32,000 nt of DNA from Candidatus Helarchaeota ASGARD archaeon Hel_GB_B. Its GTDB lineage: Archaea; Asgardarchaeota; Lokiarchaeia; Helarchaeales; HEL-GB-B. A model generated the notes under the pieces. That model saw only the letters and a list, made by a program, of their open reading frames with translations, made no database searches and was not told where the DNA came from. The translations under genes were made by a program, and so were the position numbers. The DNA lies in NCBI GenBank assembly GCA_005191425.1, contig SUPR01000035.1, positions 984 to 32,983 of the forward strand. The letters run 5' to 3'. Shown piece after piece: positions 841 through 30,980 of this stretch; position 1 is the first letter of the stretch; every line of letters starts with the position of its first letter.

Positions 841-1758
841 ATGGCAGACGCAATAAGATTAAGAAATATTTCAAAAGTATATGATTTAGGACCAATAAAG
901 GTACAAGCGCTAAGAAATGTGAATTTGGAAGTTAAAAAACAAGAATTTACAGCTATTATGGGCCCATCAGGTTCAGGTAAAACTACATTATTAAACATGA
1001 TTGGGGCATTAGATTATCCAACCAGTGGGAGAGTTTTTTTGGACGGAAATGATATTACTGATTATGATGAAGGCGAAATAACCTTTATTCGCTGTAAAAA
1101 AATCGGATTTATTTTTCAATTTTTCAATCTGGTCCCTTTATTAACGGCAAAAGAAAATGTAATGTTACCAATGCTATTCGCAGGAGATTTGACAGTAAAA
1201 GAGGCGGAAGTCCGGGCAGTTGAATTATTAACTGAAGTAGGTATTGGAGACAGAATAAATCATGCTCCTCATGAATTGTCTGGTGGTCAACAACAACGAG
1301 TTGCTATCGCAAGAGCATTTGCGAATAAACCTGCAGTAATACTTGCAGATGAGCCAACTGGTAATACGGACTTTAAAACTGGAGTTTCAATTTTAAATTT
1401 AATGAGAAAATTGAATAGAGAAGAGGGCCAGACCTTTTTATTAGTCACGCATGACCCTGGTATAGCTGGAATCGCCGATAGGGTCATTTATGTTATTGAT
1501 GGACATGTTCAGTCCACATGCCCCGATAGAGTATCTCCTCCATCAGATACTTTGGTGGAATATATAAAAATAAATAAACCTAAAGAATTAAAACGCTTAA
1601 AAAATTTTAAGCGGCAATTAAAGATTATCAAACGAGATTTAGCCTTATTTAAGGCAAGAAAAAATGAGATTGATTTTGTTCAATATCAATATATTAAAAA
1701 TGAATATTATAAAATGCTTAATGAAATTGAAAAAAAGACCAGGTGGTTAACAGCATGA
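841..1758 (+). CDS. ABC transporter ATP-binding protein, LolD/MacB family, with ~80-aa C-terminal helical extension
   Basis: Walker A GPSGSGKT, Q-loop 'IGFIFQFFNL', signature LSGGQQQR, Walker B ILADE, H-loop LVTH. Confidence 0.95.
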   Translation: MADAIRLRNISKVYDLGPIKVQALRNVNLEVKKQEFTAIMGPSGSGKTTLLNMIGALDYPTSGRVFLDGNDITDYDEGEITFIRCKKIGFIFQFFNLVPLLTAKENVMLPMLFAGDLTVKEAEVRAVELLTEVGIGDRINHAPHELSGGQQQRVAIARAFANKPAVILADEPTGNTDFKTGVSILNLMRKLNREEGQTFLLVTHDPGIAGIADRVIYVIDGHVQSTCPDRVSPPSDTLVEYIKINKPKELKRLKNFKRQLKIIKRDLALFKARKNEIDFVQYQYIKNEYYKMLNEIEKKTRWLTA

Positions 1759-4700
1759 AATTTAAGAAAAATTTGTTTTGCATAATAATATTGTTGGGTA
1801 TACTTATATCTTCATATGTAATTTCTATTAAATTTTCTCATTTACAGCCAGTTAATTTATACAATGATCATGGGAATAAAATCACAAATTTAGAAAATAA
1901 CATTCCAGAAAATGTTGAAATAACTAAAACAGAATCTATGACTGTAAACATAAACCCATTTGGTAAAATAATAGAAAAACGTACAACAGTTACATTTACT
2001 CTAAGAAACCTTGGAAATAAGAGAGTAACTTTTCAATTAAAAGACCGAGTCGAAAAAGCAGAACCTAGAACTTTTCAAATAATTCGAGGCAGCTTTAACG
2101 AGGAACCAAAAGTAATATTTATTGATAATGGAACTTATGGCTATATGTTATTTAAATTTCCAAATATTACTTTAGAAGCTAATTCTAGGAAAGAATTTGG
2201 TTACGTAGTCAAAACAAAAATAGAGGTACCTTATACTATCCATTCTACATTTTATATAAATAACACTAAAATTGAATTAAATGAATCTGAGGAAGACCCG
2301 AAAATTATAGCACCTATTGGGTCGAAAATTACTCAAGTAATTAATATACAAAGAGTAGATAAAGGGCTATTTGGGATAAATTCAATGGTACGGGCACCAA
2401 ATATTGTATTATTAACTGTAATATTACCCTACTCTGAGCGTGAAGAGGATATGGACATTTCTGAGCCTGAATATTCAAGTCCTCCAGTAATGGAAAATGC
2501 TCTCGGATTTATCCAGCAAATTTCATGGATAGTTTATTCTAATAATTATACAGTTAATTGGAGCGCAAAAATACTGAGTGGCGGGGGCTGGGGTATATTG
2601 GAACTCCAACCAATGATGATAGTAATAACAAAAGCGACTGACATGACCAGTACAGCTCTACAAGCATTAAACGGTGTATTGGGTCTTATAGCTGGACTAC
2701 AAGGTTATTGGATAGGACTGGTCGCTGATTCGCTAATTGAAGAGTTTATGACGCTCTCTTCCTATATGAATTATATATTTGACATTATGGCTATGGACTC
2801 AAGTATCATGAATATGGGTGTCTACTCGATGATAAATAACATGATTATTGCTCTTGTTGAGGCTAATATCGTCCGCCAGTTTTTGCAAGACAGTATAAGT
2901 ACTATAGATGGCGTAATTGATGATATCGGTGGGTCGTTCCCACTCGATGCAATTAATTTAATTAATGTCCAGACTACATTAAATAATTCTCTTGATTACA
3001 TTACAGATATGGAGCGGAGGATAACCGCGTCATTTGGGGCGCAAATTATTCAGTTGCTAGGGAACCCTGCAGTCATAACAATTAGGAAAATGCCGATAAT
3101 GGACATAATATATCTTGATTATCTATTTATCAATGCAACTGCATCCGAGTTGTCTAATAACCAGACTGATTTTTACACAAAAATTGATATTGAAAATTTG
3201 ACTGCAATTAATGGGTTGGTCAATTTAAGTCGGACATATGAATTTAAATTAGGCAATTCTACTGGGTTCTTCTATCTGTTAGACCAAGTTTTTGGCAGAC
3301 CAATATTTAAAGAGACTAATGTTTCAGGTTCTCCTAATTCAACAGCACCCGGAATTTATACTTCATATTTAAGTATGTTAACCCCTAATGAAGGGTCATT
3401 CTGGTACACTTTAGGGAATTTAAGTAGGTCTATCGCAACTCAGCTATTGTTGTTAAATTCAAGTTTTGGTGGAAAATATAAGATTTTATTAAAAAATCAA
3501 AGTGCAAATGTGAATATCTCGTCTAAAGACCCATTTATCTTAGAAACTGGTTTTACAGGCTTAAATAGTTTTATGAATAGCCTTAAAAGTATTCAGAAAA
3601 AATATCAATCTCCATATGGAAATCCACCTGATGTATATATTCCAGAAATTAACTCGAATTATAATAATATGCCTTTTGGAGGTAATCTTTCAGAAGAAAC
3701 CCTAAATGTCTTGAATAACATGAGTTTTAATACTCAAATGCAGATTTATATGGAACCAAATTTGTATATCCGAAATACACTAAATTTTTCTCTACCAATT
3801 GGAAACTTAAGTAATCTTACAAGTAATTTTACTGGTACTGTCCCGATAGAAGTAGCCGACTATGTATTAGAAGACGGGACAAAACCGAATTGGGTAAATT
3901 CCACCATAAACGGAGTTCAATTCAATGATGCTACTGATCCTATTTTCAAGAGATTTATTGTTAATGGCATTTGTAATTTTAGTAAAAGTGTTTTAGTACC
4001 TGGTAAAAAATTAATGACTAATTTTAGGATAAATAGTACGGACGCTCGTATTGACCTTATCATATACGATGAAAATAATACTATAAAAAAATATAATTTA
4101 CAAGATCTTATGTCAAATATTAATGATTGGAATAATTTCACATGGGATTTGTCGAATCCCAATTATTGGAACTATTATGATAATAATTTTGATAATGACC
4201 ATATAACTAAGTTTGAATTTATTATAAATTCTACAAATCCTGTGGCATTTGATATTGACTATATGAATATGTCAAGGACTGTGCTACCATATCCAAATAA
4301 TATTACGTTATATGAAGGGTATGTCTACAGCAATGGAATAGAACTATTTGGAAATGTAACTAAATATGAGCAACTAAACGGTGGGCTAGAAATTCCGTAC
4401 TCTTTTATTGCTGATGTCTGCGGCGGATCTGATAACGAGGTAGTCGCTGGATCAACTGATGAAAATATTTATGTATTCAATGGGACGACTGGTAATCAAT
4501 TATGGAATTTGACACTTAATGGACATATTACAAACATGTTTGTCCAAGATTTTATTAAAGGCGGTAAAAATGAAATAATTTTAGGTTTAGACAATGGTTC
4601 TATTTTAGTATTAAATGGTACTGGTAGTCTTATCTGGAACTATTCGTTTTCAAATACAATAAATTATATGGCGATAAGTGATATTAATAACGATTCACTG

Positions 4701-7610
4701 GACGAATTGGTTGTGGGTGCAGATGATACCATTTTAGTAGCACTAAATAATTCTGGAAATTACTTGTGGAACGACTCTTTGAAGAATACGATAACTGATA
4801 TAAAAATTGTGGATATAAATGGTGATAATAAAAGTGAAATCTTGACCAGTTCACTTGCAAATTCTGTAAAATGTTTTAATGGGTCAACTGGTGAATTTAT
4901 ATGGAAAAAACGTTTCTATGATGATGTATTAAAAATTGCTATAGGAAATTTTACCGGAGATAAATATAAAGACATTGTAGCATATGTAAAACCAGACTAC
5001 CTGTATGCATTTTCGGGGTATAATTTATCAGATATTTGGGAAATAGAAACGAATGCTTATATAATCAATTTAGATACAATTAAAGTGCCACTCAAAAAAG
5101 ATAATATTGTCATAAGTACAGCAACAAATCTTACTTCATATTTCGGAAATAATGGAACAGAACGATGGACAGTCCCAACAAATTCTATAATTACGACAAT
5201 GAAAGTCTTTGACATAGATTCTGATTCTGCTGATGAAGTAATGATTGGCGCTAATTATCATAATATATCTGCATATTTGGATAATGGGAGCTTACTTTGG
5301 GAATATAGAGCAGATAGTGCTGTTAAAAATATTGGCATTGGTTATATTGACAATAATTCTGTTTATGATATAGCATTAGGCGAAAGCAATAATAAAATAC
5401 AAGCTGTAAATCTAACTTCATTTACTAAATTATGGGGAAATACTTTAGGAAAATGGATTTTATCGTTTAAATTTATAAGGACGAGCAAATATATTTCAAT
5501 ATATTATAATCTTCCCGAGCCTATTACCCATCTTATGCAAACTATTGGTGTTAACCTCCCTGAAATGACTTCTCTAGCAAATATCGGTAGCTTATCATCA
5601 TTGAGTGGTACAAATGTAAATGGACTAGACTCATTATCTCAAATTTCAATGAATCCGAGCGACCTGGAAAATTTTGGAATCAATGTTTCATTCACAGGAA
5701 TTGGTCTAGTAAACATTTTATTGTTAGAACTTGATCTTATGATCTATATTCAAGAACTTAGCGATATTTCAAATTATGAAAAAGCTTTTACAGGGGCCCC
5801 TGATGTAAAATATTATGGAGATAATTCAGCACCCGATATTGATGTTTTTGTTAACGATACCGTTGATTCACCGAATTGGGAATATGTACAATGTGATATA
5901 AGAAATAATGAAGAAGATCCAATTACGGTACAATATTTTGCGGTTACTTTAAAATATAACAACTATTCAATCCCTAAAGATCGAATAATAATCCAAGGAT
6001 ACAATGTAACTTCTAGTAAATGGATTGACTTGAACAGTAGTGTTATTAAAGACTTTGATTGGAATAGTATTGGGTTAAATTATGTCAATGGTAGCGTAGT
6101 GTTTAAAAATTTTATAGAAATTGATACTGATGAACGGAAATTAGTTACTACCGATTGGAAATTAAGACAATTACGTATTAAAATCAATATTTCCGGACTT
6201 TCACCATCAAACTTAACAATAAATATTTGGTCTGATTGTATTCAGGATTTGGACGGAGTTACTATGCAACCAATTAGTAGTTCTATCACGATCAACGCTA
6301 TTTATCCTACTGTACTTGTATTTCAAATACCTTCCATAGAAATACCTCCGAACCCCCAAGTAAATATCTTAAGGATAATTCTAACATCACCAGTTACTTG
6401 GGGTCTTGTTTTAGCTGCTGGTATTATTGGTTTTGTTTATCAAAATTTAAATAAACGTGAAAAATTCAGATATAATAAAATTGCCACCAATAAAATGCTG
6501 AAATGGCTCAAGAAAGAACAAAATAAATGGGACGCTGCACTACTAAATGGGACTATTAATATTAAAAAATATTCAAGCCTTAACCGCCTGAGACTTAGAT
6601 TGATGCACGATTTTAGACAGCCTAAAGAGAAATTTCTGCAGTTTGTATTTAAATATAATAGTATAATTGAGTCTTATAAAATTATGAAAGATACATCCCA
6701 TATCTTCCTCTTAAAAGGATTCTGGCGAGATATTGATCAAAGATCTAAATTAGCTTTAGTCTTAGACCGAATTGTTCATTATATTTTATTACCCGTAAAT
6801 TACATTCTAATTGGATTATTCTGGATTCCAAAAGGAATATACAAACTGTTAGTAAAAATCTTCGTCAAAAAACAAAAAATAATCGTCAAGAAAAAAGCAT
6901 TAATCAGTGATAATGACTTAGACCAAAATGAAATAGAAATAAAACCACCTGTAAAAACTATAAGTCAAAGTAGTGGAAATGAAGAGCTTGATAATGCTTT
7001 ATCTAAATATTTAAAAGATGTTAGGTCTAGCAAACAAAAAAAGAAAAAGAAGTCAAACAAAAAATGGCACGGAAAAACAATGAACGATGGAGGTACCACT
7101 AATGATAATAAATTACCTGAACTAGAAACAAAAATTGGTAAAACATTTTATTTTATAGCTGAAAATAAATATATTGGCAGAAAAGTGAACGAAATTGCTA
7201 AATTTCTAGGTGTATCTATTCATGAGGTAATATTTTATTTGATAAAACTATATGAACAAGGCCTAATCTCCCAAATAAAAGAAGGTAAAACCCTTGGTGA
7301 AGATATCTGGGATGTAAGTTCTAGATTTAAAAAAGTCGACCCTGAACTCGAAAAAATTATTGAAAAAACAAAATACCTCTATGATGAAGTTTCCGAAGGT
7401 ATAATAATAACTGAAGCAGAAATAAAAAATGAAATAGACGAAACAAAAGAAGAAATTGAGGCTGAGCGCGTGCCTGAAAAAAATATAAATATAAAGGACA
7501 TAGAAATTCTAATGCCAAAACCAGTGAAAGTAGATATAGATTTACCTGAAATTAAAGAAAAAGAAACTAAAGACTTACCAACCGCAAAAATAGAAGAAAT
7601 TAAAGAGTGA
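1755..7610 (+). CDS. Giant (1951 aa) multidomain membrane-anchored surface protein with FG-GAP/PQQ-like beta-propeller and C-terminal winged helix
   Basis: ATG 1755 overlaps the ATPase TGA (ATGA), so it is preferred over GTG 1743. N-terminal signal/anchor MKFKKNLFCIIILLGILISSYVI; eight propeller blades at about 4407-5450; TM segment at about 6366-6440; wHTH-like segment at about 7128-7285. Confidence 0.85.
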   Translation: MKFKKNLFCIIILLGILISSYVISIKFSHLQPVNLYNDHGNKITNLENNIPENVEITKTESMTVNINPFGKIIEKRTTVTFTLRNLGNKRVTFQLKDRVEKAEPRTFQIIRGSFNEEPKVIFIDNGTYGYMLFKFPNITLEANSRKEFGYVVKTKIEVPYTIHSTFYINNTKIELNESEEDPKIIAPIGSKITQVINIQRVDKGLFGINSMVRAPNIVLLTVILPYSEREEDMDISEPEYSSPPVMENALGFIQQISWIVYSNNYTVNWSAKILSGGGWGILELQPMMIVITKATDMTSTALQALNGVLGLIAGLQGYWIGLVADSLIEEFMTLSSYMNYIFDIMAMDSSIMNMGVYSMINNMIIALVEANIVRQFLQDSISTIDGVIDDIGGSFPLDAINLINVQTTLNNSLDYITDMERRITASFGAQIIQLLGNPAVITIRKMPIMDIIYLDYLFINATASELSNNQTDFYTKIDIENLTAINGLVNLSRTYEFKLGNSTGFFYLLDQVFGRPIFKETNVSGSPNSTAPGIYTSYLSMLTPNEGSFWYTLGNLSRSIATQLLLLNSSFGGKYKILLKNQSANVNISSKDPFILETGFTGLNSFMNSLKSIQKKYQSPYGNPPDVYIPEINSNYNNMPFGGNLSEETLNVLNNMSFNTQMQIYMEPNLYIRNTLNFSLPIGNLSNLTSNFTGTVPIEVADYVLEDGTKPNWVNSTINGVQFNDATDPIFKRFIVNGICNFSKSVLVPGKKLMTNFRINSTDARIDLIIYDENNTIKKYNLQDLMSNINDWNNFTWDLSNPNYWNYYDNNFDNDHITKFEFIINSTNPVAFDIDYMNMSRTVLPYPNNITLYEGYVYSNGIELFGNVTKYEQLNGGLEIPYSFIADVCGGSDNEVVAGSTDENIYVFNGTTGNQLWNLTLNGHITNMFVQDFIKGGKNEIILGLDNGSILVLNGTGSLIWNYSFSNTINYMAISDINNDSLDELVVGADDTILVALNNSGNYLWNDSLKNTITDIKIVDINGDNKSEILTSSLANSVKCFNGSTGEFIWKKRFYDDVLKIAIGNFTGDKYKDIVAYVKPDYLYAFSGYNLSDIWEIETNAYIINLDTIKVPLKKDNIVISTATNLTSYFGNNGTERWTVPTNSIITTMKVFDIDSDSADEVMIGANYHNISAYLDNGSLLWEYRADSAVKNIGIGYIDNNSVYDIALGESNNKIQAVNLTSFTKLWGNTLGKWILSFKFIRTSKYISIYYNLPEPITHLMQTIGVNLPEMTSLANIGSLSSLSGTNVNGLDSLSQISMNPSDLENFGINVSFTGIGLVNILLLELDLMIYIQELSDISNYEKAFTGAPDVKYYGDNSAPDIDVFVNDTVDSPNWEYVQCDIRNNEEDPITVQYFAVTLKYNNYSIPKDRIIIQGYNVTSSKWIDLNSSVIKDFDWNSIGLNYVNGSVVFKNFIEIDTDERKLVTTDWKLRQLRIKINISGLSPSNLTINIWSDCIQDLDGVTMQPISSSITINAIYPTVLVFQIPSIEIPPNPQVNILRIILTSPVTWGLVLAAGIIGFVYQNLNKREKFRYNKIATNKMLKWLKKEQNKWDAALLNGTINIKKYSSLNRLRLRLMHDFRQPKEKFLQFVFKYNSIIESYKIMKDTSHIFLLKGFWRDIDQRSKLALVLDRIVHYILLPVNYILIGLFWIPKGIYKLLVKIFVKKQKIIVKKKALISDNDLDQNEIEIKPPVKTISQSSGNEELDNALSKYLKDVRSSKQKKKKKSNKKWHGKTMNDGGTTNDNKLPELETKIGKTFYFIAENKYIGRKVNEIAKFLGVSIHEVIFYLIKLYEQGLISQIKEGKTLGEDIWDVSSRFKKVDPELEKIIEKTKYLYDEVSEGIIITEAEIKNEIDETKEEIEAERVPEKNINIKDIEILMPKPVKVDIDLPEIKEKETKDLPTAKIEEIKE
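4407..5450 (+). repeat. Eight ~43-aa beta-propeller blades (FG-GAP-like Ca-binding DxNxD..E motif plus terminal Trp)
   Basis: Blades begin IADVCGGSDNEVV, VQDFIKGGKNEII, ISDINNDSLDELV, IVDINGDNKSEIL, IGNFTGDKYKDIV, DTIKVPLKKDNIV, VFDIDSDSADEVM, IGYIDNNSVYDIA. Each ends with an (L/I/R)W motif. Confidence 0.85.
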
Positions 7611-13919: not shown

Positions 13920-14495
13920 TTAAATTATGGAACTAAGAATCGCCGTGTACAAGTCTTCATCATACATTCTAATCCCTTTTAGATACATTGCGGTCTCTAG
14001 CAAGAAAAATGCAATTATTATAACAACAATTCCCAGACCTAAATACACATAACAAGAAGATGGCTTATAAAAGTTTTTTGTAGATAAATAAATTAATGAA
14101 AAACCACCTAATGCTATAAAAATAAATGATGATGCAAGAATTCCTTCAATAATAAATTGGTCGTTTAATGACCTTAAGAAAATTATCGGTTCAGGTGGAT
14201 TTCCTTGTCCATAACCCATGGGAATTTCTCGATATGCTCCTATTATGAAGTACATCCCACCGCTAAAAAAATAGAAGAATAGTATAAAAACAAAAACCAT
14301 TACTAAATACCTTGAAGTCAAAAAGCTGGGTATTTTTACTCCTACAAAAGGGTTATTTAACCTTATATTTGGCTTTCTAATAATTTTCTGAGGCCATGGT
14401 AGGTGGGCATTCCAAAATGATTTTGATAAAAGTGTTTGAGTTATACTTGTTGCGGATTTCTTGGAAATTTTTTTCGTTTGCTTTTTCTTTGTCAT
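13920..14495 (-). CDS. OSTC/DC2-like oligosaccharyltransferase subunit (OST3/OST6 TM-domain family)
   Basis: Three TM segments, no thioredoxin domain. '[31 protein letters not shown]' matches human OSTC '[32 protein letters not shown]' (human sequence recalled from memory). Confidence 0.82.
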   Translation of the reverse strand: [191 protein letters not shown]

Positions 14496-23051: not shown

Positions 23052-26000
23052 TTGTCAGTATTTGAAAGGATGAAGAGGTCTTTAAGTAAGGTATTCCATA
23101 AACCTACAATTACAATCGATAAAACTAACATTTTACTTTATATTACACTTATCCTTGTTTTTATTATATCACTTATTATTAGGTTAATGCCATTATTTTA
23201 CACTGATGCTGAGATTCATGCTTTAGACCCATTTGTACAATACAGGTCTGCAAGATATATTTTAAATAATGGCTTTTTTAGCTTTATGAATTGGTATGAT
23301 GACCAATCTTGGTATCCTTATGGTAAATATATGGGGGGCTCGATATTTCCGGGCACTCCTCTTTCCGGGATTACTACTTTTTATTTTTTGAATTTCATTG
23401 GTATCCCTGTCAGCTTCTTAGAGGCATGCGCAGTTACACCTGCGATAATGGGTGCTGTGACTTGTTTAATGATGTATTTTTTAGGGAAAGTACTTGCTAA
23501 TAAAAAGGTCGGTCTGATGGCTGCCTTTTTCATGATGGTATTACCTGGCCATATCCAGCGTTCTTATTGTGGTTTTTTTGATAACGAAGCTCTTGGAATT
23601 CTTGCAATAGTGGCGACCTTAACTTTTTTCGTTCATTCCTTGAAAAAAGGGTCTATCTTTACCGGGATACTGGCTGGGATTAGTTTAGGTGTCTTATCGA
23701 GCACCTGGGGTTCTTGGAATTATATGTATGCTTTATTGTCGTTAACTGCATTTCTTTTAGTACTTATAAATAAATATTCGACAAGATTACTTGTAAGTTT
23801 TGGTCTGACCGTTGGAATTGGGTGGATAATGTGTACGGTTGTACCAAGAAATGGGCTCGATGCATTTACAGGCTCCTATGCCCTAATTTCCTTAAGTATA
23901 TTAGCGCTCCTATTCTTTATTGAACTATGGGGGCGGTTTAAAAGGTCTAATTTTTATTTCTTTAAAAATATTAGTGAAATGTTTAATTGGAAAAGAGTTC
24001 TGATCTATTCAGGAGTTGCAATTTTAACGATTGTAATAATTTTTGTTTCCACTGGAATACTTCAATATATCCTTACAGCATTTGTTAACACAAGTTTCTT
24101 TAAAGGTCTGGGGAATAGGGTCATTGCTATAATAAACCCATTATATGTCTCTCAAGCGACTAGGTCTGTTGCAGAACACATTCCATCTGCTTGGGGTGTC
24201 TATTATTTCAACTTCAGTTTCTTTCTCCTATTGATGCCTGTTGGTATTTTCTTTTTATTTAAACGGTTTCGTGAAGAAGATGTTTTAATGATCTTGTTTG
24301 GGGTCACAATGGTCTATTTTTCAAGTTCTTATATTCGACTTCAACTTCTACTAGCCCCAGCAATTTCGATAATTGGAGCTTTTGGGCTTGTATTTCTTTT
24401 TAGACCTTTTTCTCTCATATTTAAAGAAAAATTTATTATCGGAAGGAGAAAAAAGAGATTGTCCAAAATTGTAGGAAAAGAAATCGGGTTTGGAGTGATG
24501 GCATTCTTTATTTGGATGCTATTATACCCTACAATGCATGGCATTTGGAATGGTTATGCAAATATTGGTCGAACACCTGGTATGCCTGACGACATGAAGG
24601 AAGGATATACTTGGATGCGTACTGTATTACCTCAAGGAACTGTAGTTATGTCTTGGTGGGACTATGGATATAGGATCACGACCATGGGTGAAAAAGTAAC
24701 TGTAGACGATAATGCAACAAGTAATTCAACTCAAATGGGTATGGTAGGTAGGATGTTTATGTCAACTGATGAAACTACTGCTGTAGAAATATGTAGAAAG
24801 TATAACGTAAGTTATGTCATGGTACGCTGGGGTTATTATCAGAGTTATCTTGCTGGAGATGATGGAAAGTGGCAGTGGATGTTACGAATAGCTTCACAGA
24901 CGTTAAAAAACACTAAATATAAAATTAATGTTAGTAGCATTTGGAGTGAAGATGAATATAAAGTAACTGGAAACTTCTTTAAGACAATTTTGTGGAAAAT
25001 GCTGATTACTAATGAACCTTACATTGATGCCACAAAGACTTATTCAACAGCCCAAGGAGGTTCAATATCCGGGGCTGATATAATCAATAGTAAAGGTGGC
25101 TTCTACAAGCCATTATGGACAAGATTAGCAAACCCAAATAATAATGAGCAATTTAAGACAGTAGAGGGTCATAATTGGGATTATTATAACCCAATACCTA
25201 TGGGTACAAAGACGAGCCTACCTCTTGACGCCTCAACGACAATCGTAGATGTAGATACTTTCCCAGGAGACGGGGATTCCAATGATATGTTGAAGTTTTT
25301 CGATACAGCATTTTTTTCTAAATATAGGTTAATGAAAGTATATCGTGTGAATTATGATAAAGCGGACTTAAGATTTGATATATCGGATTTAAGATTATAT
25401 AACAATAGCATAGCATATATAAGAATAAATAATACTGGTAAAAGGATATTTGACATAGATTCTATAAAAATCAATTCAATGGAACCTACATATAAATTTA
25501 AAATAGGTGGTAATGGAACAGCGGATTTAAAAAATATATATCCAGGAAAATTCATAGATATACGTGCTTCAGAGTTTAGTACTATTGAGTACAACCAGTC
25601 TTATGATGTTGAAATAGTGATAAAAGATTCTTCAATATCTTCAAATACCCTGACAAAGACTGAAGAAATTAATGCAGAGAAAGCATTGAATTATAATATG
25701 TCTGTGCCCGAGTCTAAAGTATATTTATTTAGTAATAATACAATTGGTTTTATAGTAAAAAATACGGGTGAGGATTACTTTAGGTTGCATGGACTAACGC
25801 TTGATTCTTATGTAGCAAGTGGTTTTATTTCAAATGCTACTTCGATAGTAGTAGCGCCTGGTGAAACTCAGAAAATATATATAGACTCAACATCAATGAG
25901 TCCGTCCTTAAATTTAAATTTGGGCGATTTCTACAATAAAATGACAATAACAACAGATACTCCCAGTAATTTAAGTGTTGAAATTGATAATCTCACAGTG

Positions 26001-27974
26001 ATTTCGGGTTCTTATTGTGGTAATATCCAAAACGTTTCTGTATGGGCAAATGAAACCATTAATTTCAATTTAAAGAATACTGGACTTTACAATTTTACGA
26101 TCGATCATATTAGGATAAATAATTTAATCTGGGATAATTATATAACGCCGAATCCTCACAATATGTTTTTAGCTAAAGGAGATATTCAAAGTTTTGAGTT
26201 TAAAGTGACACATGATATTTGGAATTTAAACGATTCAAATATAGTAAAAATAAATGTCTCAATAAATTTACCGGTAAATATGACGATTGACGAAGAATCC
26301 GCGAAATTATATGGTGAGTATAAAGTTGTTAATGATTGGATTAATTATAATCTAGCGGTACAGACTAAAAAAGCATATTCTAATGAATCAATATTAGTAA
26401 ATGTGACGAATTGGGGTTTGAAAACAATAGAAATTTCCGATTTTAAGGTATCAACAAATTCAACGTCCAATTGGATTGAGACCACAAATTTTACGCGAGT
26501 CCCCAATGGGCCAAATGAACTAGGAGTAAATGAATCTGCTCTATTCTTGATAAAATCTAATTTAAATTTAAATTATAGCGATTTAGTAAAAGTAAAGGTA
26601 GAAACATTTGAAGGTGCTTGGAATGAAACAAAACAGTTAGAATTTACGAGGCGGTGCGGAAATATTACTATTAGTTGGACTAAGGCATATCAAAATAATG
26701 ATACAGTATTTGTCAATTTAACAAATACTGGTGATATAAATATAACAATTAAAAATATCTATTTTAACGGTAATTTATCTGCCAGCTTTATACCGATTGA
26801 TGTCAAATATAATGAACTATCCATGTCTCACTGCACAATAATGCCTGGGCAATACCAGTTATTTAAAGCGAAAATCGAATCGAGTCAAATGTCATCAATA
26901 GTCCCAGGAGGTACTCTTATATTAAACGCTACAACATGGGAAGGTGCAACTGATGCAAAACAAGTAACATGGGAATATAACGTCTGGTTTAAGAAAATTT
27001 ATGCATATTTAAACGATACTATAAAATTAGTAGTCCAAAATATAGGGGCACAAAAAGTAACAATAAATAACTTTTATGTTAATAGCTCATTGTGCAATTG
27101 GACATTAATATCGGGAAGTTTAACTTTAGATGTTAATGATAAAGCCTCGTTCTTATTGAATACTACTTATTTGGTGAACAGTTCGATTGACTTACAATTT
27201 AGCGATTTAATAAATGTGACTGTAGTTGCTAATTATACGTCCAATTTAGATAATATTAGTTTTACTTATAACAATTTATTTGTTTTAGATACTGATTATA
27301 ATATAACAATTCTTCAATATTGGCCTAATACATATGCATTTGACAATGGTACTTTAACAGACGCTAATGACACAGTGTGTGTATCTATAATGAATACAGG
27401 AGCTTATAACATAACAATTTCTAATATTACAGTTAATGGTATCTTGCGAAACTTTTTGATAATTAGTAATTCGCCTTATAATTTTACAATCAAGCCGTAT
27501 CAAATTTTAATGGTAAGGAATTCGACTAACTTAGGGATTGACTTAAATGCGACAGAGAAAATTAAAATAAATGTTTCGACAAATGCAACGGTAGGTACAA
27601 AATTAATTTGGGACAATATTTCTGTAATTGTATGTTATACTCATTTCAACACGACATTATTGTATAAAAATAATGAATCTGTGGTGGTCAATGGGACTGT
27701 TGATACTTTATATTTAAATCTCACAAATTTTGGCAATGAATCATTAACATTGAGCCAAGGAAGTATACTTATAAATAATTCAGTGGACTTTATGTATTAT
27801 TATGGCCAGCAAGCAGGGATTTCAACTATTGTATTGAGACCTGGTGAAAATATAAAAATTAGTATTATAATTACGAACTTGGGACCATTCACTTATCCAT
27901 TACCAGAACCCGGCGATAAGGTAAAAGTCAATTTAAGCTGGAAGACAGGTGATATCTATCTTAATGTAATATAA
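23052..27974 (+). CDS. aglB: Oligosaccharyltransferase catalytic subunit STT3/AglB with ~870-aa C-terminal repeat extension
   Basis: Multi-TM N-terminal half. Motifs HALDP, WYPYG, FDNE (aa 177-179 for DNE), SVAEH (aa 372), WWDYG (aa 535; nt 24654-24668), DNAT, DDGKWQWMLRIA (aa 603). Confidence 0.95.
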   Translation: MSVFERMKRSLSKVFHKPTITIDKTNILLYITLILVFIISLIIRLMPLFYTDAEIHALDPFVQYRSARYILNNGFFSFMNWYDDQSWYPYGKYMGGSIFPGTPLSGITTFYFLNFIGIPVSFLEACAVTPAIMGAVTCLMMYFLGKVLANKKVGLMAAFFMMVLPGHIQRSYCGFFDNEALGILAIVATLTFFVHSLKKGSIFTGILAGISLGVLSSTWGSWNYMYALLSLTAFLLVLINKYSTRLLVSFGLTVGIGWIMCTVVPRNGLDAFTGSYALISLSILALLFFIELWGRFKRSNFYFFKNISEMFNWKRVLIYSGVAILTIVIIFVSTGILQYILTAFVNTSFFKGLGNRVIAIINPLYVSQATRSVAEHIPSAWGVYYFNFSFFLLLMPVGIFFLFKRFREEDVLMILFGVTMVYFSSSYIRLQLLLAPAISIIGAFGLVFLFRPFSLIFKEKFIIGRRKKRLSKIVGKEIGFGVMAFFIWMLLYPTMHGIWNGYANIGRTPGMPDDMKEGYTWMRTVLPQGTVVMSWWDYGYRITTMGEKVTVDDNATSNSTQMGMVGRMFMSTDETTAVEICRKYNVSYVMVRWGYYQSYLAGDDGKWQWMLRIASQTLKNTKYKINVSSIWSEDEYKVTGNFFKTILWKMLITNEPYIDATKTYSTAQGGSISGADIINSKGGFYKPLWTRLANPNNNEQFKTVEGHNWDYYNPIPMGTKTSLPLDASTTIVDVDTFPGDGDSNDMLKFFDTAFFSKYRLMKVYRVNYDKADLRFDISDLRLYNNSIAYIRINNTGKRIFDIDSIKINSMEPTYKFKIGGNGTADLKNIYPGKFIDIRASEFSTIEYNQSYDVEIVIKDSSISSNTLTKTEEINAEKALNYNMSVPESKVYLFSNNTIGFIVKNTGEDYFRLHGLTLDSYVASGFISNATSIVVAPGETQKIYIDSTSMSPSLNLNLGDFYNKMTITTDTPSNLSVEIDNLTVISGSYCGNIQNVSVWANETINFNLKNTGLYNFTIDHIRINNLIWDNYITPNPHNMFLAKGDIQSFEFKVTHDIWNLNDSNIVKINVSINLPVNMTIDEESAKLYGEYKVVNDWINYNLAVQTKKAYSNESILVNVTNWGLKTIEISDFKVSTNSTSNWIETTNFTRVPNGPNELGVNESALFLIKSNLNLNYSDLVKVKVETFEGAWNETKQLEFTRRCGNITISWTKAYQNNDTVFVNLTNTGDINITIKNIYFNGNLSASFIPIDVKYNELSMSHCTIMPGQYQLFKAKIESSQMSSIVPGGTLILNATTWEGATDAKQVTWEYNVWFKKIYAYLNDTIKLVVQNIGAQKVTINNFYVNSSLCNWTLISGSLTLDVNDKASFLLNTTYLVNSSIDLQFSDLINVTVVANYTSNLDNISFTYNNLFVLDTDYNITILQYWPNTYAFDNGTLTDANDTVCVSIMNTGAYNITISNITVNGILRNFLIISNSPYNFTIKPYQILMVRNSTNLGIDLNATEKIKINVSTNATVGTKLIWDNISVIVCYTHFNTTLLYKNNESVVVNGTVDTLYLNLTNFGNESLTLSQGSILINNSVDFMYYYGQQAGISTIVLRPGENIKISIIITNLGPFTYPLPEPGDKVKVNLSWKTGDIYLNVI
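25368..27971 (+). repeat. Eight tandem ~105-118-aa beta-sandwich (Ig/CARDB-like) protein repeats in AglB
   Basis: Recurring '(A)Y.N.(T/S)(I/V).(V/F).(L/V).N(T/W/I/F)G...(I/L).I..I.(I/V)N'. The N-x-G Asn falls at nt 25431, 25761, 26076, 26409, 26724, 27039, 27393 and 27726 (spacings 110, 105, 111, 105, 105, 118, 111 codons). Confidence 0.85.
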
Positions 27975-28148: not shown

Positions 28149-28604
28149 TTATGAAATATCAAGATTGTAAAATTTTTTTAAAAGTTTTTTAATTGTTGTC
28201 ATAGCATTTTTTGCGATTTGGATGGCTTGTTCAGCATCTCTTTTTTTATAGAACTCAAGAGGTGAAATTACTCGTCTTGAGCGTAATCTAACATATCTAG
28301 TAAATGAATACTGCTCCATCAACCAATCTGTTTCCTTAATCATCTCTCTTAATTCATTTATTGTATCATTATTGACTCGCGTTATTATTTCTGAAATAAA
28401 TAGGCTTGTAGGGTCATGGTCATAGATTTGCGTTAGACCTTCTAATGCGAGTGCCGATTTCATTATTTTCTCCACGCATTGTTGGGAATCAAATACCGCT
28501 TTATGAAATCTGGACTCCCTCAGCTGCATTTCGGCAGATTTTAAATCTGATTCAGCTTCTTTTACTAATTTTATGGCAAAATCTTTTAATAATTCTGATG
28601 TCAA
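28149..28604 (-). CDS. HEPN domain protein (COG2250/sacsin-like)
   Basis: 'AESDLKSAEMQL..SRFHKAVFDSQQCVEKIMKSAL...HD', 'FTRY', 'DAEQAIQIA'. GAGGT upstream of the TTG start. Confidence 0.88.
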   Translation of the reverse strand: MTSELLKDFAIKLVKEAESDLKSAEMQLRESRFHKAVFDSQQCVEKIMKSALALEGLTQIYDHDPTSLFISEIITRVNNDTINELREMIKETDWLMEQYSFTRYVRLRSRRVISPLEFYKKRDAEQAIQIAKNAMTTIKKLLKKFYNLDIS

Positions 28605-28609
28605 TAATA

Positions 28610-29089
28610 TTACCTCTGAATAAAAATTCCTGATCTTGGATATATCTTCAATTTCCCTGATTCAACTGCTCTAGTAATATAATCATGGCTTTCATCCACC
28701 AATTCCTCTCCAAAAATTATGTAATAACCAAGATATACGCCCAAATTAAATGGAAATAAATTTTCACACCCGAATTTAAAATCGTCCTCTGAAATTACAT
28801 ATGGGTCTATTTTTACAGAATATTTCCTCGATAATTCTCTACAAATAGTAAAAATAATTTCATTTAAATTTCTGTCCTCATAATTCAATATTATTAATAA
28901 GTCTAAATCACTGTCTGGATAATTTTCACCACGAATTCTAGAACCATATAATACAAGCGCTTTTAAATTCTCTCTTAATTTTAATTTTATTTCGGCATAA
29001 ATGTCCTTACTAATTTTTCTCAAAAATGGATCTAAAAGGTGTCTTTTAAATGTCCTATTATTCCTAATTTTTTTCATAATTAGTACCAA
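28610..29089 (-). CDS. Minimal nucleotidyltransferase (MNT), partner of HEPN
   Basis: 'VLYGSRIRGENYPDSDLDLLII' (GS-x10-DxD). Directly upstream of HEPN with a 5-nt gap. An alternative start is ATG 29077. Confidence 0.9.
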   Translation of the reverse strand: MVLIMKKIRNNRTFKRHLLDPFLRKISKDIYAEIKLKLRENLKALVLYGSRIRGENYPDSDLDLLIILNYEDRNLNEIIFTICRELSRKYSVKIDPYVISEDDFKFGCENLFPFNLGVYLGYYIIFGEELVDESHDYITRAVESGKLKIYPRSGIFIQR

Positions 29090-29566: not shown

Positions 29567-30980
29567 ATGAAAACTGGAACAAAAAGTTTTGTTTATTTAC
29601 TAATATTAGTGGCTATATTAATCATACCCATGGTTTTTGTGATTTTTGGGAATACTGCGATCTTTATATCACCATATTCCAGCAATGATATAGACATCAG
29701 GATATCAGCTAATACCTATCAATATACAAAAATTTGGAATAAAAAATGGGATCCGGGTTCTTTGGAAGATAGAAGTGCTGATATAGCAATAGACTCAAAT
29801 GGCAATATCTATATTTGCGGGTTCATAAATAGCTTTGGAAATGGAAGTAAAGATGTCGCGTTAGTAAAGTACGATCCAAGTGGTAATATTCAATGGTATA
29901 AGACATGAGGCGGTTCTAATGATGATGCGGCTAGAGGTATTGCTATTGATTCAAATGATAATATTTATGTCTGTGGATATACTGAAAGCTTTGGAGTTGG
30001 ATATTCGGACTTCTTTACATTGAAATATGGTTCTAGCGGTACATTAATTTGGGTAAAAACTTGGGGCGGACCAAGTTATGATTCTGCATCTGGAATTTGC
30101 ATAGATTCGGCTAAAAATGTCTATGTTTATGGTTCTACTTCTAGCTATGGATCTGGTGGATACGATATTGTTATAGTAAAATATGACCTGAATGGAAATA
30201 AATTGTGGAATACTACTTGGGGTTTAATAGGGAATGATTATGGTATGGACATAAAAATGGGAAAAAATGGATTTTTATATGGGTCTGGTTATACGGACAA
30301 TGGAGGTAATCCTGATTTTGACTTAGTTGTTATTAAGTATAGCCCTAGTACAGGCATACCCATTCCACCTATTCAAATGTGGGGCGGTAGAAATAATGAT
30401 AAACCGAGTAGAATCGCAATGGACAGTAATAATAATATATATATGTGGCGAAACTGACAGCTATAGTAATGGTAATAGCGATATTTTTTTAATAAAATAT
30501 AACGCATCATTGACAAAAATTTGGAACACTTCTTGGGGCGGTACATCACAAGATTATGGAAAAGGTATCGGAATTGATTCAAAAGGATATATTCATGTTT
30601 CAGGAGCGACTTTAAGCTATGGTGTTAAATTTGAAGATGTTGCACTTCTTATGTTTAATTCCAGCGGAAATTTAATTACAAATACTACTTGGGGCGATGC
30701 TAATCTAAATAATGGAGAGAAATTAGCTATAGACTCATCTGACAATATATATGTTTGCGGTTGGACTATCCAGTACGGTACTTCTGATGGTGATTATGAT
30801 TTAATTAAATTTAAAATATCTGTAATCACTATACCAATGACATCAGGAATTATTGTTCCTGGATTCGAGTTTATACCGATTATTCTCTGTGTCCTTCTAT
30901 CTTTAGCTTGGTATTTTCCAATAAAACTAATAAAAAATAAAAAATTTCTTAAAAATTTGATTATAAAAAAATTTGATTAA
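29567..30980 (+). pseudogene. Disrupted 7-bladed SBBP beta-propeller surface protein with PGF-type C-terminal sorting tail
   Basis: Signal peptide followed by seven 'WGG..D....IAIDS..NIYVCG.T.S.G....D..L.KY..G...W' repeats. In-frame TGA at 29906-29908 sits where Trp is expected; frameshift in (AT)5 at 30435-30444. C-terminus VPGFE + TM + Lys-rich tail. Confidence 0.88.

Follow-up and report, generated by a model that had tools for sequence, protein, structure and literature searches.

The window analysed here is a stretch of 32,000 nucleotides (nt) from the Asgard archaeon Candidatus Helarchaeota Hel_GB_B, and it encodes an STT3/AglB protein in which the oligosaccharyltransferase (OST) enzyme is followed, within the same reading frame, by eight repeats of about 110 amino acids (aa). 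In eukaryotes STT3 lies at the catalytic centre of N-glycosylation, and among prokaryotes its nearest relatives are the STT3s of Asgard archaea. The repeats are predicted to fold as immunoglobulin (Ig)-like beta-sandwiches, and the gene is the longest form seen of a stalked STT3 family that is widespread in Asgard archaea and apparently undescribed. We lean, by a modest degree, towards reading the extension as an extracellular, glycosylated and non-anchored stalk, which would make the organism's single OST a component of its cell coat. The architecture itself is real and conserved. It is not a singular invention, and it matters for how the ancestral OST and the surface of Asgard cells are reconstructed; the function is what we infer.

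An intact STT3 core with an eight-repeat extension

The STT3/AglB open reading frame (ORF) is uninterrupted in both the ORF list and its translation, and is organized as follows (the evidence for each feature is given in brackets, and the repeats R1 to R8 all derive from motif anchoring and a repeat profile).

23052..27974, + strand: complete STT3/AglB gene, 1640 aa plus stop (ORF list, translation, Pfam STT3 and AglB_core-like matches)
23052..24536, + strand: polytopic membrane domain, aa 1 to about 495 (Pfam STT3 at aa 51-441, hydrophobic segments to aa 491, motif positions)
24549..25349, + strand: external catalytic globular domain, aa 500-766 (Pfam, motifs, residue-level alignment to STT3A through aa ~619)
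25359..25688, + strand: repeat R1, aa 770-879, 4 sequons
25689..26003, + strand: repeat R2, aa 880-984, 5 sequons
26004..26336, + strand: repeat R3, aa 985-1095, 6 sequons; the repeat modelled alone (also AlphaFold2 and fold matches)
26337..26651, + strand: repeat R4, aa 1096-1200, 7 sequons
26652..26966, + strand: repeat R5, aa 1201-1305, 6 sequons
26967..27320, + strand: repeat R6, aa 1306-1423, 9 sequons
27321..27653, + strand: repeat R7, aa 1424-1534, 11 sequons
27654..27971, + strand: repeat R8, aa 1535-1640, 6 sequons; protein terminus, without membrane anchor (also hydropathy)

The Pfam STT3 family (PF02516) matches aa 51-441 (E 4.4e-49, profile positions 25-404 of 405) and an AglB_core-like domain matches aa 525-591. 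In the membrane domain we read the catalytic acidic motifs as D59 in ALDPF, D177-N-E179, and SVAE ending at E375, which we take to be the equivalents of yeast D47, D166/E168 and E350. The external domain holds WWDYG (aa 535-539, nt 24654-24668) and the DK motif DDGKWQWM (aa 603-610, nt 24858-24881), both of which align to STT3A. Judged from these residues, the protein is an enzyme with all its catalytic motifs intact, and it is the only STT3 found in the genome (3.54 Mb in 182 contigs, 93.7% complete).

Its best relatives among solved structures are eukaryotic STT3A chains (E 1e-82 over aa 23-621). Archaeal AglBs of known structure, namely the C-terminal domain of P. furiosus AglB-L (2zag/2zai) and the short AglBs of A. 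fulgidus (3vgp, 3vu0), belong to the same enzyme family and have an external C-terminal catalytic domain, but they are distant from this core, with matches only around WWDYG (E 5e-6 to 7e-3). Given this difference between STT3A and the far weaker archaeal AglB fragments, the core is by sequence similarity a eukaryote-like STT3, nearer to its eukaryotic counterparts than to the AglB of euryarchaea. Eukaryotic STT3A, STT3B and Stt3 (6ftj, 6s7o, 6s7t, 6c26) are alike in their membrane and external catalytic domains, WWDYG and a DK-type motif; however, they act within a multi-subunit complex of the endoplasmic reticulum, and their solved chains have 696-935 residues, without an Ig-repeat tail.

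The first-pass annotation of the window placed the normal end of STT3 at aa ~766. The sequence FSKYRLMKVYRV occupies aa 755-766 and leaves 874 aa to the end of the protein. An end at this position is compatible with the length of known STT3s but could not be confirmed by alignment, as HMMER aligns STT3A only to aa ~621 (residue 610 of 705 in STT3A) and the last ~100 STT3A residues remain unaligned.

Beyond this point, the run-on of ~870 aa described in the same annotation holds up as 874 aa in eight units of 105-118 aa, which we defined by motif anchoring and a hidden Markov model. Each unit carries an N-[TWIF]-G motif (aa 794, 904, 1009, 1120, 1225, 1330, 1448 and 1559, thus 105-118 aa apart), and the units share a strand pattern when aligned with one another. 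The repeat profile finds exactly eight domains in the STT3 protein (E 5e-12 to 2e-24) and nothing significant elsewhere in the organism's own genome, where the only other match has E 0.78. The repeats are mutually 14-28% identical, and a self-BLAST of the extension returns the identity match only. At the DNA level there is no tandem array near the ~320-nt unit period, just three very short arrays of 16-42 nt. By these sequence comparisons, the repeats are ancient and diverged.

The extension as a whole has a mass of 98 kDa and an isoelectric point of 4.9. With a membrane-helix threshold of 1.6 for the 19-residue Kyte-Doolittle mean, the last stretch of the protein to reach the threshold is aa 473-491, and no membrane helix is found in the extension, where the mean peaks at 1.22. 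The C-terminus of the protein is a beta-strand region, so that there is no second membrane anchor, in line with what had first been noticed. As the tail is continuous with the external catalytic domain and no membrane helix comes later, it most simply lies on the extracytoplasmic side, where the first-pass annotation had also placed it.

A long ORF of this kind might be an assembly chimera or a decaying gene, and a check for a chimeric fusion had been proposed for nt 25300-25450. The junction at nt 25350-25370 is crossed, free of any indel, joint or loose end, by Logan contigs that come from four sequencing runs in four studies (the runs containing the sequence are labelled as hydrothermal-vent and marine-sediment metagenomes). 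No RNA data set is listed as containing the extension, which says nothing about expression in either direction. One contig of 4,936 nt spans 24300-26500 with 11 single-nucleotide polymorphisms (6 synonymous, 5 conservative) and therefore comes from a different strain. A strain variant in another assembly (P0002) retains all 1640 aa in a 99%-identical protein. Full-length orthologues of 1594-1915 aa come from independent assemblies, and the same eight domains are found in orthologues whose extensions are 28-60% identical to this one. The fusion is real and conserved, and the chance that it is an artefact or a relic is negligible. Upstream of the gene, MptE-like, GcvH and NAD kinase genes are syntenic in an orthologue of 56% identity; downstream, no conserved partner gene is seen at loci L015 and L016, which were compared by ORF position, size and strand and not by sequence.

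Fold, kinship and sequon load of the repeats

The tail had been proposed to be a chain of Ig-like beta-sandwiches, and structure prediction bears this out. AlphaFold2 (AF2), run on aa 767-1640 with 13 aligned sequences, returns an all-beta model with a mean predicted local confidence (pLDDT) of 81.3 and a predicted template modelling score (pTM) of 0.43. For one repeat modelled alone (aa 985-1078, 53 aligned repeats), the prediction is a six- to seven-strand sandwich with pLDDT 92.8 and pTM 0.81.

Several comparisons point from this sandwich to filament proteins of archaea. The repeat profile matches a flagellar-like type IV pilin of Pyrobaculum calidifontis (8fk7, E 1e-6) and the DUF4352 filament protein 8q30 (E 4e-5). 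Pfam Arch_flagellin is matched by 6 of 53 repeats (best E 4.5e-6), and in a relative this match is limited to profile positions 84-161 of 162. In VIA-align, the top structural match is FlaF/FlaG 5tug (Z 8.1, root-mean-square deviation 2.7 A over 84 residues), and FlaF 4p94 (Z 7.5), five archaellins (Z 6.0-7.0) and two archaeal pilins (Z 6.2-6.5) are also found. The ESM Atlas yields template modelling (TM) scores of 0.77-0.78 to small archaeal proteins of 135-151 aa, one cluster of which has Pilin_N in 11% of its members. Other searches gave less: Foldseek with the single repeat finds nothing below E 0.03 in the PDB, a sequence search of the PDB finds no match to the extension, and Pfam matches to LTD (11 of 53 repeats, best E 3.5e-4), HYDIN_VesB (6 of 53) and CARDB (3 of 53) are below threshold. 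With the whole tail, Foldseek returns only generic multi-Ig proteins (hydin, DSCAM, alpha-2-macroglobulin) at TM 0.10-0.18.

The repeat is an Ig-like sandwich, which most probably has a common ancestor with the globular domain found in the pilins and archaellins of archaea. It shares with archaeal type IV pilins, archaellins and FlaF/FlaG (8fk7, 6w8u, 5tfy, 8qx4, 5tug, 4p94) the fold and a weak but significant profile similarity. However, it is not a pilin, as it has neither the class III signal peptide nor the filament-core hydrophobic helix at the N-terminus that define the archaellin and archaeal type IV pilin families (PF01917, PF07790), aa 767-1640 being free of hydrophobic segments, and the STT3 repeats are concatenated in one chain instead of polymerizing into a filament. 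Two archaeal pili are known to carry N-glycans (PMC10334743). No Arch_flagellin match at E <= 0.001 was detected in the organism's own genome (93.7% complete), although the same model matched four of four archaeal controls; the organism may be one without an archaellum.

The extension is also loaded with N-x-S/T sequons. A manual count had given about 54, roughly three times a rough expectation; the exact count is 54, against 19.5 +/- 3.8 in 2000 composition-preserving shuffles (maximum 32), which is a 2.8-fold excess (z 9.3). The enzyme core has 7 sequons, with 4.8 expected. Both forward motifs contribute to the excess, N-x-T (34 vs 10.2 expected) and N-x-S (20 vs 9.4), while neither the reversed motifs T-x-N (7 vs 10.3) and S-x-N (7 vs 9.4) nor the control motifs D-x-S/T (3 vs 8.0) and Q-x-S/T (4 vs 3.4) are enriched. 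The same forward-only asymmetry, with N-x-T favoured, is seen in seven orthologues. Moreover, 31 of the 54 sequons recur in each of the four close orthologues and 12 in each of the nine full-length ones that were compared, and the sequon asparagines are 84% conserved in close and 51% in distant orthologues (58% and 35%, respectively, for other asparagines). Because the enrichment is forward-only and the positions are conserved, the sequons of the stalk look selected.

Such loading has parallels within the genome. Some two dozen giant ORFs reach sequon densities of 3.5-6.2 per 100 aa (observed/expected 2-3.5), and the stalk, with 6.2 per 100 aa, stands alongside them at the 99.9th percentile genome-wide. 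By these counts sequon loading is not special to OST, and we take it to be a signature of the organism's surface glycoproteins, of which the genome content suggests a large, heavily N-glycosylated repertoire. Examples of sequon-dense giant ORFs, which reach 3169 aa, are C80:554-5551 (102 sequons in 1665 aa), C141:1-4126, C89:138-4358 and C156:1-9509. The window itself holds a second giant glycoprotein candidate, a 1955-aa protein (1743-7610, + strand) with beta-propeller (FG-GAP/PQQ-like) and Fn3-like matches and 60 sequons, where 26 are expected; its gene directly follows FtsX-permease and ABC-ATPase genes.

Stalked STT3s among Asgard archaea

The first-pass annotation knew of no characterised OST with this architecture and proposed a survey of Asgard AglB/STT3 lengths and repeat counts. 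Our sample consists of 301 genomes of the Asgard phylum, in which STT3 frames fall into length classes of about 680-790, 910-960, 1015-1045 and 1140-1370 aa. Among the 150 matches listed, none has a longer open frame than the gene described here (1646 aa). Of the 301 genomes, 135 contain a match to the repeat profile, and every located repeat match that was cross-checked falls within the STT3 frame. Genomes carry 1-6 copies of the repeat, apart from a genome of the same order with 7 and the organism's own genome with 8. By family, the matches are distributed as follows.

Family f3, sister family of the same class: match in 64 of 69 genomes, mostly 2-6 copies
Family f4, sister family of the same class: match in 7 of 7 genomes, mostly 2-6 copies
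Family f5 (genomes of about 1.4 Mb): match in 3 of 4 genomes, 5 copies
Family f17: match in 4 of 4 genomes, 4 copies
Family f14: match in 19 of 19 genomes, 1-3 copies
Family f9: match in 4 of 76 genomes, single weak matches
Family f24: match in 6 of 21 genomes, 1-2 copies, all weak
Family f7: match in 6 of 28 genomes, single weak matches

In these other Asgard STT3s, the same repeat family directly follows the catalytic domain, again without a second anchor, but with fewer repeats (1-6) and in shorter proteins: frames are 1216-1335 aa long in the same-class sister families, 1235 aa with 5 repeats in the genomes of ~1.4 Mb, and 1141 aa where there are 4 repeats. The idea that the architecture is exceptional is therefore abandoned, since stalks of this repeat are routine in Asgard STT3 genes. 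Whether such an extension is already routine in described enzymes has a divided answer, as the stalks are common in Asgard genomes but no description of them was found in full-text literature on Asgard, STT3, AglB and OST, subscription journals being outside the search. The passages of a P. syntrophicum glycoproteomics study that concern aglB mention it by motifs only (PMC11284389), and those presenting AF2 models of the MK-D1 translocon, which include OST, make no comment on a tail (PMC11417166).

None of the archaeal AglBs of known structure cited above matches the extension in a comparison made by sequence. Some characterised archaeal AglBs carry a few beta-rich peripheral units.

The eight-repeat form has a much narrower range. 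When the whole 874-aa extension was compared with 1.84 billion representative proteins, only 14 were matched at E <= 0.001, from which we conclude that this form is confined to a small clade; a scan of a genome collection with an alignment of the extension found three loci only. In the same-order genome with seven copies (G294), STT3 is split over two contigs, with 1367 aa running to a contig end and a 340-aa frame at a contig start. A contig titled 'Candidatus Deferrimicrobium sp.' (DATKTP010000225.1, locus L017) is perhaps the one with the 340-aa frame, to judge from its number, 225, and a frame of 340 aa. If L017 belongs to G294, which is grouped with this Asgard order, this label may be wrong.

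Should the stalk be a standing part of STT3 in a large share of the phylum, it ought to appear in models of the ancestral OST and of the surface of Asgard cells, and cultured Asgard archaea with a stalked STT3 would allow a direct test of its function.

Possible roles of the stalk, and neighbouring genes

If the extension is the coat stalk that we moderately favour, the tail would be exported after the last membrane helix, and many of its 54 sequons would receive N-glycans from the enzyme's own active site or from that of a neighbouring copy. It would then project from the membrane as a free-ended glycoprotein stalk without an anchor of its own, about 30 nm long if extended, at about 4 nm per Ig domain. 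OST would in this way be part of the glycoprotein coat of the cell, with the stalk serving as a scaffold that bears extra inserted domains in some orthologues.

Several results weigh against this coat reading. The pTM of 0.43 means that inter-domain geometry is not predicted, and a rod shape is not established. Structural scores of Z 6-8 are middling for a beta-sandwich, and because unrelated Ig domains of GH2 enzymes reach Z 7.8, kinship with pilins draws mainly on modest sequence-profile matches. Sequon excess is strong in the eight-repeat clade (z 5-10) and in two other lineages, but the five-repeat stalks of the same-class sister families show little or none (z 0.2-2.3, compared with 9.3 here), so that heavy glycosylation, as far as sequon counts tell, is not intrinsic to the stalk family. 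Finally, even conservation over eight repeats, together with constraint near that of the core, fits a role more specific than that of a passive coat.

This last point deserves closer consideration. R1 to R8 each find as best match the repeat of the same index in orthologues P0006 and P0007, which indicates that orthology across the order holds for each of the eight domains individually. Identity in the extension is 0.60, vs 0.76 in the core, for the closest orthologue, and 0.33 vs 0.41 for a distant one; by this measure, the rate of change in the extension is only slightly above that in the enzyme core. The distal tip is not more conserved than the rest, as all-pairs identity is even over R1-R8 (0.30-0.41). 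Individually orthologous repeats constrained almost like the core would suit a substrate-handling arm, which would bind unfolded acceptors or surface-protein substrates, or guide them to the catalytic site, and would thus belong to the mechanism of the enzyme and not to the envelope. The restriction of the repeat to the STT3 gene in this genome, and to STT3 frames at every cross-checked match elsewhere, likewise suggests a role tied to the enzyme, and the best structural match, FlaF, is a protein-binding beta-sandwich of the archaeal envelope. However, a rod of eight domains that may bear as many as 54 glycans is a poor candidate for the surface of a chaperone, and with conservation so even no binding groove or conserved tip stands out. 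Besides, many of the sampled Asgard STT3 genes lack the repeat, as do eukaryotic STT3 chains of only 696-935 residues, which indicates that the stalk is not needed for catalysis. We consider a substrate arm unlikely.

Orthologues differ from this protein by inserted modules. P0007, P0008 and P0011 have a cupredoxin-like insert between R2 and R3 (aa ~930-1080; Pfam Cupredoxin_1, E 3e-6 in P0011), and P0009 (1915 aa) has a ~220-aa insert between R6 and R7 (aa ~1480-1700). Pfam finds no family in the inserts of P0007 (aa 960-1090) and P0009 (aa 1470-1710), and the latter, which by eye had seemed LamG-like, is not supported as such. Modular surface proteins acquire domains in this manner, and the stalk could accordingly be an adhesin or display scaffold in contact with surfaces, syntrophic partners or other cells, for which the membrane-embedded OST would be the anchor. 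The absence of a second anchor would leave its tip free, and the whole-tail model resembles multi-Ig proteins including DSCAM, carcinoembryonic antigen and contactin. These matches to adhesion proteins, at TM 0.10-0.18, reflect merely Ig domains in series, though; Pfam recognizes no binding domain in the protein, and dense glycosylation would mask protein-protein surfaces. An adhesin seems to us improbable, to about the same extent as a substrate arm.

The first-pass annotation also suggested that the extension might replace lumenal scaffold subunits (ribophorin/WBP1-like roles) in cis. As a substitute for OST subunits that are separate proteins in eukaryotes, such as OST48/WBP1 or ribophorin II, it has lost ground. 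What speaks for it is that OST48_N gives only a sub-threshold match (21 bits, cut-off 36), that Ribophorin II is not found, and that the extension begins, by length only, about where a eukaryotic STT3 would end. The Ribophorin II model, however, matched no control genome either, which makes its blank uninformative, and other subunits are separately encoded. A ribophorin I homologue lies on contig C60 of the genome, and a 191-aa membrane protein in the window (13920-14495, - strand) matches Pfam OST3_OST6 (27.5 bits, cut-off 27, E 2.6e-6). The match covers the transmembrane part of the family (profile positions 176-282 of 294), without the thioredoxin part; the gene, which has a CDP-archaeol synthase gene beside it, is located 8.5 kb upstream of STT3, and its product is a possible OST3/6 subunit. 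In addition, the repeats resemble pilin and FlaF domains rather than OST48 or ribophorin folds, none of them matched OST subunits (one matched TRAP_alpha, E 0.0096), and several Asgard families have few or no repeat matches, with STT3 frames of 720-940 aa. Replacement in cis is thus the least probable of the roles considered, and clearly less so than an adhesin or a substrate arm.

There is a broader and more speculative possibility, to which we attach a low probability. The pilin-like stalk would be a functional organelle of the Asgard OST rather than decoration, and STT3 a membrane-rooted, self-glycosylating envelope fibre that couples glycosylation to the building or sensing of the coat. 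Its length would be tuned to envelope thickness, with mostly 1-6 domains and 8-9 in Helarchaeota-like archaea, and it would have been lost toward eukaryotes as lumenal subunits took over.

Two further loci lie downstream of STT3 in the window. Directly after the gene, at 28149-29089 (- strand), a HEPN protein (151 aa) adjoins a minimal nucleotidyltransferase (159 aa), which we take to be the usual HEPN-MNT toxin-antitoxin arrangement. Next, three short and partly overlapping ORFs of 113, 145 and 217 aa (29567-30980, + strand) look like one frameshift-broken gene or a gene with an unrecognised interruption, and the first and third of them, the two that were scanned, match the SBBP beta-propeller repeat.

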